Below, one piece after another: positions 57,131-60,583 of a stretch of DNA of 64,000 nt. The notes below the pieces were generated by a model. That model was not told the origin of the DNA. It did not search any database and saw only the letters and a program-made list of their open reading frames with translations. How positions within the stretch are numbered: the stretch's first letter is position 1; each line of letters starts with the position of its first letter. The DNA lies in contig JBGUGD010000025.1 in NCBI GenBank assembly GCA_041697335.1, forward strand, positions 96,001-160,000, in the 5' to 3' direction. The DNA is from Vampirovibrionaceae bacterium NZW_1234. Lineage in GTDB: Bacteria; Cyanobacteriota; Vampirovibrionia; Vampirovibrionales; JAGQHJ01. A program made the translations under genes and the position numbers.

Positions 57131-57916
57131 GTGAATACGCAATTGCTGGCGCGCCAGGTTCGGCGTGATAGCTTGAAACAAATCCATCGCGCGGGCTCGG
57201 GGCATCCGGGTGGTGCACTTTCTTCGGCGGACATTTTGGCAGTTCTGTATCGCAATATCCTGAATTTGGACGGACCGAGCCGAGACCGGTTTATCTTGTC
57301 CAAGGGCCATTCCGCCCCAGCCCTCTATGCTGTGTGGGCCAATAGCCAATTAATTGAACATGAAGCCCTTCAGGGCTTTCGCAAATTAAATGCCCCGCTC
57401 CAGGGCCATCCCCATGTGCTGGCAACGCCGTTATGTGAAACCAGTACCGGGTCCTTAGGGCAGGGCTTCTCCGTAGCCCTGGGGATAGCACTGGGCTATC
57501 GACATCAAGGTCTTTCCGGCCGTGTTTTTGCGCTGTTAGGCGATGGCGAACTTCAAGAGGGCATTGTGTGGGAAACAGCGATGTGTGCCGCCCAGTATAA
57601 GCTGAACAATCTCATTGCCATTCTGGATTACAATAAGCTCCAGAGTGATGACAGAAACAGCAATATCATCGGCCTCGAACCGCTGACCGATAAATGGCGT
57701 GCCTTCGGTTGGCATGTCCTGGAAGTGGATGGTCATGATCATGACGCCCTGTACGAGGCCTTGTCCCAAACTTACGATAAACCCACGTTTGTAGTTGCCC
57801 ACACCGTAAAAGGAAAAGGCGTCAGCTGGATGGAAAACATCCCGAAGTGGCATGGCAGTGTTAAATTAACCGATGACGAGTTGACCCGGGCCCTGGAAGA
57901 ATTAGGAGAGGAGTAA
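57131..57916 (+). CDS. Transketolase, N-terminal (TPP-binding) subunit
   Basis: GSGHPGG, DRFILSKGH, LQGHP, TGSLGQG, GDGELQEG..WE, KGKG. Confidence 0.93.
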   Translation: MNTQLLARQVRRDSLKQIHRAGSGHPGGALSSADILAVLYRNILNLDGPSRDRFILSKGHSAPALYAVWANSQLIEHEALQGFRKLNAPLQGHPHVLATPLCETSTGSLGQGFSVALGIALGYRHQGLSGRVFALLGDGELQEGIVWETAMCAAQYKLNNLIAILDYNKLQSDDRNSNIIGLEPLTDKWRAFGWHVLEVDGHDHDALYEALSQTYDKPTFVVAHTVKGKGVSWMENIPKWHGSVKLTDDELTRALEELGEE

Positions 57917-57919
57917 GTT

Positions 57920-58885
57920 GTGAGTAGCCAGCCTACATTGATTGGCATGTCGGGAGACACCTTGCGGGAAGCCTTCGGGAAGGCACTTGCCGATCTTATG
58001 GAACACTATCCCAATGTGGTGGTTCTGGATGGCGATGTCGCCGGCGGCACGGGGACCCACCACGTTCGTTCCCGGTATCCGGATCGCTTTTATCAGATGG
58101 GCATCGCTGAGCAGAATATGATGGGTGTAGCCGCCGGTATGGCAGCCACAGGCCTTATCCCTGTGGTTACGACCTTTGCCGCTTTCTCCCTGCGGGCTTA
58201 TGAGATTGCTCGACTCTCTGTGGCCTATGCCCAGCGCAATGTCAAAATTGTTTGCAGCCATCCGGGGCTTGACACTGGACCCGATGGGGCTTCGGCTCAA
58301 AGTATGGAAGATCTGGCCGCCTTTATGGCCATTCCCAATATGACCGTCCTTTCTCCAGCGGATCCGGTGGAGGTCAGATTGGCTACCAAGGCCATGCTGG
58401 ACCATCAAGGCCCGATTTACATGCGGACCGGCCGAAGCGCCACGACCCGTCTGTTTGATGAAAAGCATCGTTTCGAGATTGGCAAAGGACAAATTCTGAG
58501 ATCCGGCAGTGACATCACATTAATTGCCTGCGGTGTCCAGGTGGCTCGCTGCCTTGCTGCGGCCGAACTGGCTTCGAAGATGGGGATCTCCGTTCAAGTG
58601 GTTAATATGCCCACGCTTAAACCCATTGATGAGGCATTAATTCTTCAATGTGCCAAGGAAACCGGGATTCTGATGACCTCCGAAGACCATAACACCTTGA
58701 ATGGGTTGGGCTCGCAAGTGGCACGCGTGACAGCTCGCCACTGTCCTGTTCCTGTCTTTTGTCATGGGGTCCAGGACACCTTTGGTGAATCCGGTGAACC
58801 CGAAGAGCTCGCCGAAAAATATGGGCTTTCTGCCCCGTCGATTCTTCGTCAGTTACAGGATTTTCTGGCGCAGCACCGAAACTAA
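57920..58885 (+). CDS. Transketolase, C-terminal subunit
   Basis: GIAEQNM, GPDGAS.Q, GPIYMR, EDH...GLG, FGESG. Confidence 0.93.
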   Translation: MSSQPTLIGMSGDTLREAFGKALADLMEHYPNVVVLDGDVAGGTGTHHVRSRYPDRFYQMGIAEQNMMGVAAGMAATGLIPVVTTFAAFSLRAYEIARLSVAYAQRNVKIVCSHPGLDTGPDGASAQSMEDLAAFMAIPNMTVLSPADPVEVRLATKAMLDHQGPIYMRTGRSATTRLFDEKHRFEIGKGQILRSGSDITLIACGVQVARCLAAAELASKMGISVQVVNMPTLKPIDEALILQCAKETGILMTSEDHNTLNGLGSQVARVTARHCPVPVFCHGVQDTFGESGEPEELAEKYGLSAPSILRQLQDFLAQHRN

Positions 58886-59478
58886 GCCAAGAGTGTATCC
58901 GTCCCTGCCGGCCCAGCGGGAACAAAGGGAATATTATCCCCGCCAATAATTCCTTGGCCACCGGGAAGAGATTTGCCCACCGTAGAACTTAGCCCTTCCA
59001 TCAGGCCTCTGAGGTTGGTCTGTGCATTCGCATTGAGGGTTCCTCTCAGCTTCGGCGCATTTTTATTGGGGTCCCCACCGCTAAAATAGGGATCATTAGG
59101 AGTGTCGTAGCTGCTACCCCAATTGGCAACAGGGAACGTATCGCTGCCACCAATATCGGCTGTTGTGCCACGACGGCCTGAGGAGCCATTCGAATTATTT
59201 ACCCGGGGAGATCCGCCTGCAAGAAGCGTGTCCGTCCCTGCGGGGCCAGCCGGAACAAAAGGAACATTATCACCGCCGATGATGCCCTGACCACCCGGCA
59301 ACGATTTACCCACCGTTGAACTGAGGCCTTCCATGAGCCCTCGTAAATTGGTTTGAGCCCCTCGGCTCAAGGAACCATTTAATTTGGGTGCATTCTTGTT
59401 GGGATCACCACCACTAAAATACGGGTCATTGGGCGTTGAATAATCGCTAATCCGATTCGCCACATTTCCAAATGTCAT
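58882..59478 (-). CDS. Orphan 198-aa protein consisting of two 73-aa repeats
   Basis: AGGAGGT SD; residues 15-87 and 126-198 are 67/73 identical with mostly synonymous DNA differences. Confidence 0.9.
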   Translation of the reverse strand: MTFGNVANRISDYSTPNDPYFSGGDPNKNAPKLNGSLSRGAQTNLRGLMEGLSSTVGKSLPGGQGIIGGDNVPFVPAGPAGTDTLLAGGSPRVNNSNGSSGRRGTTADIGGSDTFPVANWGSSYDTPNDPYFSGGDPNKNAPKLRGTLNANAQTNLRGLMEGLSSTVGKSLPGGQGIIGGDNIPFVPAGPAGTDTLLA

Positions 59479-59936
59479 ATCGCTGACCTCCTAGGTCCAC
59501 ATAACCAGCCTAATCACATCTGAAGATATAAAAACAATAAAATGGCTCATTGATGCTAGGGTTTATATTTTCTTAAGATTGTTGATCGAAACAGGTTGAT
59601 TTTAAAAAATCAGCGCCAAGCTTGAAATAACAAATTTAAAAATGTTACAAATGCGCACAAAGTCTGGTTTTGAGGTTTTTATATAAACAGAGAGAGTCCT
59701 AACAAGTTTTAGAGGGGGATACATTAGAGGGGTTGTTAAAAGATTTGATAATTTAATACGATAGCCATTTTGGGCCAACATTGCTTGTGACTTGAACGCA
59801 TTTCAAGACACAGACCTGTTTAACCCGCAAGGCTAGTTTTAGCCCACTATGCCTATCAATAACATCATCGAAGCGTTCACGTCGTTGTGAACAAATTGAT
59901 GCCAGTTATCTGTCTTCGCCCAACCCATCCACCAGG

Positions 59937-59994
59937 GGAAGCATTTCCTGAATTTTCTCTTCTCGGGGGGAGGAAATGCTTCCTATTTTTCTTT
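59937..59994 (+). terminator. Hairpin with T tail
   Basis: GGAAGCATTTCCT...AGGAAATGCTTCC followed by TATTTTTCTTT. Confidence 0.55.
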
Positions 59995-60163: not shown

Positions 60164-60195
60164 AACGGTTTTGCAAACTAATTTGCAAAACCGTT
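60164..60195. repeat. 14-bp perfect inverted repeat
   Basis: AACGGTTTTGCAAA-CTAA-TTTGCAAAACCGTT. Confidence 0.7.
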
Positions 60196-60557
60196 CAGGT
60201 GTGTGTTTAAAGGTCAATGAATGTCCTATCCTGGGGGGATATTTTATAAAAAATCAGCATTCAACAATGAATCAATTGTTCAATACACTCTGTTTTCACG
60301 CGCAAAATAAAGTAGATAAGGAAGCTCACGGATACGGGTATGAATCGAGCTGCAATAAAAATTATTATTGTAAAAACCTCCAAGCTCAGGACCTGATGCC
60401 CTAGAATCTCCATTAGCCAGAGGAATTCCAGTCCTATATCTCATCTAAGCGAGTGGCATTTCGATAAATAGCTCACCTAGGCAATATGTCCGTTTCGACA
60501 TATCCCGCATAATTTCCGTGTGATTCAACTCTCTTCCACTCATAGAACATACAGCGG

Positions 60558-60583
60558 GCCTCATTTCATGAGGCTTTTTTTTT
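60558..60583 (+). terminator. Plus-strand terminator with no convincing upstream CDS
   Basis: GCCTCAT-TTC-ATGAGGC followed by T9. Confidence 0.7.

Follow-up and report, generated by a model that had tools for sequence, protein, structure and literature searches.

What keeps two long stretches of an apparently disordered orphan protein almost identical to each other while their codons have drifted apart, and to what kind of system does such a protein belong? The question is raised by a minus-strand open reading frame (ORF) at positions 59478-58882 of the window, the 64,000-nt stretch of DNA analyzed here. It encodes a 198-aa protein of 19.8 kDa, in which a preliminary description had recognized two 73-aa repeats.

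The orphan gene consists of two anciently duplicated units

The repeats are present as reported, but the true unit is larger, ~87 aa (86 aa in the second copy): residues 1-87 and 113-198 are 86% identical over 87 columns, with homology extending back to the start codon. Unit 1 (residues 1-87; 59218-59478, minus strand), delimited by the repeat alignment and the predicted structure, starts with 14 loosely conserved N-terminal residues, followed by a Pro/Gly/Asn stretch, a predicted amphipathic helix (residues 39-56), and a Gly/Pro-rich tail. Unit 2 (residues 113-198; 58885-59142, minus strand) carries a predicted helix at residues 150-169. Between them lies a 25-aa linker of Gly, Ser, Asn, and Arg (residues 88-112; 59143-59217, minus strand), which is defined by the repeat alignment and by a gap-free contig from a diverged relative and is likely the former intergenic space of two tandem genes. 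The likeness of the units stops exactly at the stop codon of the ORF, a TAG (58882-58884, minus strand) that overlaps the stop codon of a convergent gene for the transketolase C-terminal part (57920-58885, plus strand). As had been stated, a GG directly follows the first 73-aa repeat and the stop codon directly follows the second.

A ribosome-binding site, GGAGGT (59486-59491, minus strand), is located 7 nt upstream of the ATG. At the border between the linker and unit 2 (59140-59154, minus strand), 13 of 15 aligned bases match this real start region. The match, spotted post hoc (p ~0.005-0.007 when anchored, 0.20 when unanchored), is at most suggestive of a relic ribosome-binding site and start codon. 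The most likely history that can be read from the sequence is a head-to-tail duplication and fusion of a whole 87-codon gene, in which the intervening 75 nt were converted to the linker. The ORF is a genuine gene built of two anciently duplicated halves.

The gene is flanked by genes for transketolase halves and by a FixC/FixX-like pair, and it sits at a synteny break between the two. The closest family homolog of the split transketolase pair (57131-58885) is found in a different gene cluster (genome G003, 67-69%). A 1.2-kb intergenic region contains a 32-bp near-perfect palindrome (60164-60195). At 60518-60576 on the plus strand, a 36-nt element precedes a terminator-like hairpin; similar copies are present at C2:123406 and C29:92198.

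Silent sites of the two repeats are saturated

To follow the divergence codon by codon, we aligned residues 15-87 with residues 126-198. Among the 73 codon pairs, 23 were identical, 44 differed silently, and 6 changed the residue (positions 34, 36, 38, 39, 40, and 72), which confirms the earlier count of six differences, five of them in one patch (34-40). A hand count reported for the last 47 codons, with 46 identical residues and 29 silently different codons, was also exact. Identity between the repeats was 86, 95, and 36% at the three codon positions, and pN and pS were 0.084 and 0.84. Of 67 pairs encoding identical residues, 23 share the codon, compared to 23.7 ± 3.7 expected at full saturation with the codon usage of the genome. 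Since codon sharing equals the random expectation, silent sites are saturated, with dS ≥1.4 and dN/dS no higher than ~0.06. This bears out the proposal of an old duplication under strong purifying selection. The concentration of differences at third positions shows that the repeats result neither from assembly collapse nor from gene conversion. Selection against DNA identity was considered and ruled out, since codon sharing matches the random expectation and is not lower.

To see how unusual this pattern is, we surveyed 3438 ORFs of the genome (predicted with a crude ORF caller) for ungapped repeats of at least 40 residues, using a finder that favors high identity. Repeats were found in 30 ORFs, and in 29 of these pN/pS was 0.25 or lower. 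With its pS of 0.84, the orphan gene ranked fourth among the 30; a microviridin-type precursor (0.98) was among those above it. The pattern is therefore less unexpected than it had seemed, though its extent, 73 residues of aperiodic and apparently disordered sequence, is notable. Taken alone, the repeat signature amounts to ordinary purifying selection acting on an old duplication.

The protein is mostly disordered by prediction, and the only homolog found comes from contig fragments of one run

AlphaFold predictions had mean pLDDT values of 47.6 and 54.2 and contained no confident fold, only the one helix per unit (39-56 and 150-169); both helices are moderately amphipathic. The protein has 36 Gly (18%) and no Cys among its 198 residues, a pI of 6.17, and a net charge of 0. 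A hydropathy rule revealed no hydrophobic N-terminal signal or membrane segment in it. The unit sequence is aperiodic, with neither amyloid-like nor collagen-like periodicity.

Pfam and NCBIfam contained no match, the best PDB match had an E value of 0.77, and in a set of 5.8 billion proteins, searched at near, longer, and shorter lengths, the only match was the protein itself. No homolog was found in the genomes of 60 relatives, in 48 genomes of the order searched with a profile of the unit, or in GTDB contigs, JGI contigs, and the Atlas, and no paralogue was found in the genome itself. In four family relatives, the position behind fixX showed no syntenic gene. These results agree with the description of the protein as a mostly disordered orphan with no recognizable domain. 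A viral scan signaled one stretch encoding a relative, without giving a locus. Two weak matches among 1.84 billion representatives were attributed to the summing of chance matches with unrelated repeats and rejected.

Near-identical contigs covering parts of the gene are present in metagenomes of hot springs and mats (runs X1, X3, and X9), one of which may be the source of the genome. A fourth run, X11, contained contig fragments of a diverged relative, the sole homolog found beyond the near-identical contigs; this evidence consists of single contigs with a depth of 3 to 5. One X11 contig spans the linker and both its flanks without a gap and differs at 46 of 295 nt; the X11 differences known by count alone number 67 and include all of these 46. 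The contig covering the start has two listed coding changes in the first 24 codons (59461 and 59437), both silent. An assembly artefact, a gene conversion product, or a noncoding shadow frame would fit a gene that is known from a single genome and has no homolog in protein collections. With a ribosome-binding site and the upstream motif described below in place, near-identical contigs from X1, X3, and X9, and the diverged relative of X11, this explanation is largely refuted and, in our estimate, highly improbable.

Features of known peptide precursors are lacking

The GG after the first repeat had led to the suggestion that cleavage releases two near-identical peptides from a multicore precursor of modified peptides. 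We searched the protein for the corresponding leader and core patterns. Neither the YF(L/F)DY tag of this genome nor the graspetide tag PFFARFL is present. Three graspetide core patterns, including TxKxPSD and TTxxxxEE, are absent, and there is no match to Inhibitor_I10, unlike in a true precursor. The double-glycine leader pattern is absent from the protein, and none of the seven C39-family matches of the genome is near the gene. The YxxPxL leader of lasso peptides is also absent, and two loose matches to the lasso core pattern are not common to both units; the genome showed no stand-alone lasso peptidase, its sole match to the family being weak and lying inside a 2018-aa protein. RTX nonapeptides (GGxGxDxL) have no strict match and three isolated loose ones, with no Pfam match. 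Having no leader, tag, core, or Cys and no modifying enzymes nearby, the protein does not support release of two peptides by cleavage at the GG.

A two-core precursor could still be processed in trans, by graspetide ligases of the genome or by C39-like peptidases from the gene cohort described below. Strict conservation would suit an enzyme substrate, four of the seven C39-family matches are cohort genes, and the genome does have multicore microviridin-type precursors, one of which belongs to the cohort and one of which is equally saturated at silent sites. However, the unit of 87 aa compares to cores of 21-22 aa in this genome, and no modifying enzyme genes were found near the gene, which makes a precursor of this kind improbable.

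The gene shares a promoter-like motif with a cohort of orphan genes

What the preliminary description missed is a promoter-like motif upstream of the gene and, with it, a genome-wide cohort of genes. The motif was first seen as a likeness of the upstream region to other intergenic regions of the genome. Its downstream box, GTTTTTATAT (59526-59535, minus strand), ends 47 nt before the ATG, and its upstream hexamer, TAGCAT (59553-59558, minus strand), lies 17 nt before the box. The bipartite motif, TRNCAH-N15/16-GTTTTTATAW, occurs at ~130 sites in the genome. The core GTTTTTATAW was found 113 times, compared to 4-15 times for each of seven shuffled 10-mers, and a TRNCAH hexamer is present at the fixed distance from 58 of the 113 core boxes, compared to 1 of 102 control words. 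The strict bipartite pattern has 62 sites and no reversed ones, with a single site inside a long ORF. Under a matrix built with this site left out, the site of the orphan gene reached 30.4 bits and ranked 33rd of 149; controls yielded 3 hits.

The relative of run X11 has no listed change in the box; three substitutions and two compensating indels have occurred in its 17-nt spacer, and its hexamer, TAGCAC, has the consensus form. Relatives from the family have 32, 27, 20, and 3 motif sites and no reversed ones. Eleven other genomes contributed 39 sites, 35 of them located before ORFs, and on inspection most of these ORFs appeared similar in character; eight have a homolog in this genome, and four of the eight homologs are motif-led here as well. 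An Rfam search of the upstream region gave nothing credible, a sigma-70 promoter scan gave matches at chance level, and the motif was not found before flagellin genes. It is not known to fit any sigma-28 (FliA) consensus. Its architecture and position point to a promoter, which the orphan gene likely shares with ~90 other, mostly orphan, low-complexity proteins.

A second core box, at 59675-59697 on the plus strand, faces away from the gene; it has neither a passing matrix score nor a downstream ORF. The stretch 59694-59968 is ~91% conserved in run X11 and is possibly a small RNA or a regulatory element.

With a cutoff of >16 bits, the motif matched 131 sites, 93 of which precede an ORF of at least 80 residues. 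This cohort contains a few likely false members. Of the 88 cohort ORFs that were scanned, 73 had no Pfam match; the other 15 include four C39-like peptidases, a subtilase, EF-hand, collagen, and pentapeptide proteins, and a microviridin-type precursor. A GntR-type regulator and an M16 peptidase also belong to the cohort. We compared the 45 ORFs behind strict sites to background genes from the crude ORF caller. Their median G/P/S/N/Q/T content was 0.42 (background, 0.33), 27 of the 45 were free of Cys (background, 311 of 1668), and 2 of the 45 had a signal peptide-like start as judged by the hydropathy rule (background, 403 of 2579). Cohort members make up 10 of the 30 repeat-bearing ORFs of the genome, and tandem paralogues accompany 12 of the 93 cohort ORFs, compared to 129 of all 3438. 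Enzyme domains in the cohort are preceded by polar, low-complexity N-termini; such N-termini are typical of type III substrates.

Several cohort loci deserve a separate record. Stand-alone C39-like peptidases with low-complexity N-termini, all motif-led, are encoded at C14:49516, C5:228339, C37:142312, and C37:143734. A tandem array at C9:91699-101380 contains approximately nine paralogues, in which FRPGQVRVDDSRGTE-like units are repeated; several of the paralogues are motif-led, and the array is possibly another multicore family. The highest-scoring listed motif site (36.7 bits) precedes a gene for a 111-aa protein (C7:123788-124123) with paralogues at C10:10421 and C10:11173; a homolog in L265, a genome of another genus, keeps the motif. 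As a guess, this protein may form the filament or needle of the second machine described below.

The makeup of the cohort bears on whether the orphan protein is a structural subunit. Its units would self-assemble, or coassemble with other products of the cohort, into a surface matrix, an adhesive pad, or a fiber, the fusion would be a covalent dimer, and coassembly would keep both copies identical. The cohort is rich in Gly/Pro/Gln repeats and includes a collagen-like protein, gut relatives retain the second export set, and Vampirovibrio chlorellavorus makes an attachment pad whose composition is given as unknown in PMC4451040. Yet the unit lacks the periodicity of amyloids or collagens, and relatives should possess a core structural subunit of this kind, whereas the search of 48 genomes of the order found no homolog. 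We consider a structural role rather unlikely.

The genome encodes a second, flagellum-derived export set and a divergent sigma factor

The genome contains two FlhA genes. In addition to the canonical flagellar genes, it has a second, divergent set that duplicates FlhA, FlhB, FliP/Q/R, FliI, FliF, FliE, and rod genes. It is distributed among C32:10110-20950 (FliI, FlhA, FliH, FliF, FliE, a likely transglycosylase, and FlgB/C/F/G), C8:66046-68072 (FliP/Q/R), C29:178730-180600 (FlhB and a divergent sigma gene), and a further locus at C30:50448-52826. FlgK, FlgL, FlgH, FlgI, and FlgA are single-copy, and all three flagellins are encoded in one cluster; genes for a second junction, ring, or filament were not recognized in the genome. 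The second FlhA scored 678 bits on the FlhA model and 586 bits on SctV, below both cutoffs. It is thus nearer to FlhA, and with FlgB/C/F/G-like rod genes present, the set does not qualify as an SctV-type injectisome.

The second FlhA, with identities of at least 63%, is present in 47 of 48 relatives from the order (in two of them as fragments) and in 3 of 12 other members of the class, and the gene order of the second set is conserved among relatives. Its closest named records, at 62-67%, are from Vampirovibrionia, mostly Gastranaerophilales. Since gut Gastranaerophilales also carry the second set, its function need not be the attack on prey.

The divergent sigma gene (C29:179872) lies 60 nt behind the second flhB. 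Pfam recognizes region 4 of its product but not region 2. The gene is found in 47 of 48 relatives from the order and directly follows the second flhB in all 11 other loci examined. A paralogue, C16:18950-19630, is 44% identical to it and has a wide distribution in the order as well. Separately, the genome has a canonical FliA-like gene and a flagellum. Outside the order, an excess of motif sites was observed in three of four genomes with the divergent sigma factor and in none of eight without it, a comparison in which related genomes are not independent. We infer that the flhB-adjacent sigma factor or its paralogue may read the motif.

The second export genes themselves are generally not motif-led. 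The motif was absent near them in 15 of 15 loci of relatives; it occurs in 1 of 11 export loci of the gut lineage, compared to 1 of 13 flagellar control loci. In this genome, the single motif near second export genes is weak (16.9 bits) and lies behind the second fliI. The lack of a link between motif and export genes in relatives fits an explanation in which the protein stays in the cytoplasm as a stage- or stress-specific disordered protein, its units bind an intracellular partner, and the motif identifies a developmental sigma regulon unrelated to export. Cytoplasmic proteins likewise lack signal peptides, and the GntR-type regulator and the M16 peptidase of the cohort would be at home in such a regulon. 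On the other hand, the cohort consists mostly of lineage-specific orphans (73 of 88 without Pfam match) and has polar, low-complexity N-termini before enzyme domains, and the likeliest sigma gene adjoins the second flhB. We therefore regard a cytoplasmic role as unlikely. The cohort instead probably belongs with the second flagellum-derived export system, and its products would be exported by the second set.

In the mostly open-access literature, we found no description of a second or nonflagellar type III system in this class and none of its orphan proteins. Di Rienzi et al. (PMC3787301) report a genome without filament, cap, junction, and L/P rings and read this as genome reduction. In PMC3787301 and PMC5877343, the gap in the "partial flagellar gene sets" of Melainabacteria is likewise read as genome reduction or nonmotility. 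In contrast to this partial-set reading, the coexistence of a full flagellum and the second set in the present genome points to a separate machine.

A model for the orphan protein and its cohort

The explanation that we favor, tentatively, is that the orphan gene encodes an exported, disordered, two-valent binding protein working like EspF-type repeat effectors. The gene would be transcribed from the promoter common to ~90 cohort genes, and the protein would be exported unfolded via the second, flagellum-derived type III machine. It has no Sec signal, and its N-terminus is polar and disordered, as expected for a type III substrate, although this criterion is a weak one. Each unit would then fold upon binding its own copy of one partner; the linker would permit two-valent binding, and the conservation of the units would reflect a long interface with the partner that occurs in both units, for avidity or cross-linking. 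Such an interface would explain how a disordered unit is conserved residue by residue while its silent sites drift. The partner could be of the prey, of the host, or of the bacterium's own cell surface.

For the class as a whole, we propose, with somewhat greater reserve, a second type III system that was derived from the flagellum independently and is equipped with a dedicated divergent sigma factor and with a promoter motif marking its substrates. In this genome, it would export approximately one hundred disordered, lineage-specific proteins, including the two-valent product of the orphan gene. In predatory members, this system, in place of type IV secretion, would build the pad or deliver effectors. 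Soo et al. (PMC4451040) propose type IV secretion for an attachment pad of unknown composition. Neither VirB4 nor the type VI protein VipB was found in the present genome, which is 94.75% complete.

The context of the gene outweighs its repeat signature. It bears on the means by which Vampirovibrio-type bacteria attach to algae and attack them, for which a type IV system has been proposed, while a search of the present genome, 95% complete, found no VirB4. The conserved second export set offers an alternative reading of the "incomplete flagella" of gut Melainabacteria, and the motif is a direct means of listing candidate substrates in any genome of the class. If confirmed, the system would be an independent conversion of a flagellum to a secretion machine, in the nonphotosynthetic sister group of photosynthetic cyanobacteria.

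Comparison with known systems

Multicore microviridin/graspetide precursors resemble the orphan protein in having repeats that are conserved at the protein level and silently diverged, and one such precursor of this genome shares the motif. They differ from it in their core and leader motifs, which the orphan protein lacks, and in the length of the unit, which is four times longer here.

Harpins of plant-pathogenic bacteria, as characterized in PMC6945534, are similar to the orphan protein in being Gly-rich (18% in our case) and Cys-free, with predicted helices amid unstructured sequence; many cohort proteins also look harpin-like. Unlike harpins, the orphan protein is not clearly acidic, and it has no Pfam or NCBIfam match.

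EspF and EspFU (TccP) of enteropathogenic and enterohaemorrhagic Escherichia coli provide the working analogy. According to PMC7973643 and PMC2567903, these are disordered effectors (EspF is 21 kDa) with near-identical proline-rich repeats, which are multivalent in EspFU. The orphan protein, too, is small and disordered, and conserved proline-containing repeats fill most of the chain. Compared to these effectors, its units are longer (~87 versus 40-47 aa), it has no separate N-terminal secretion domain, and the genome has no SctV-type injectisome. Pfam, NCBIfam, PDB, and protein-collection searches revealed no homology to the 47-aa repeats of EspF/EspFU. The protein belongs to neither the EspF/EspFU nor the harpin family.

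At the level of regulation, the closest parallel is the late regulon of sigma-28 (FliA). The sigma region 2 that Pfam does not recognize, a motif that differs from the FliA consensus and was not found before flagellins, and a cohort of ~90 mostly orphan proteins set the present system apart from it. Shared by both are an alternative sigma factor in the context of export genes, a promoter-like motif in two parts, and substrates that lack Sec signals. Early flagellar genes lack the motif of the late regulon, much as the second export genes are free of the motif that precedes the cohort.
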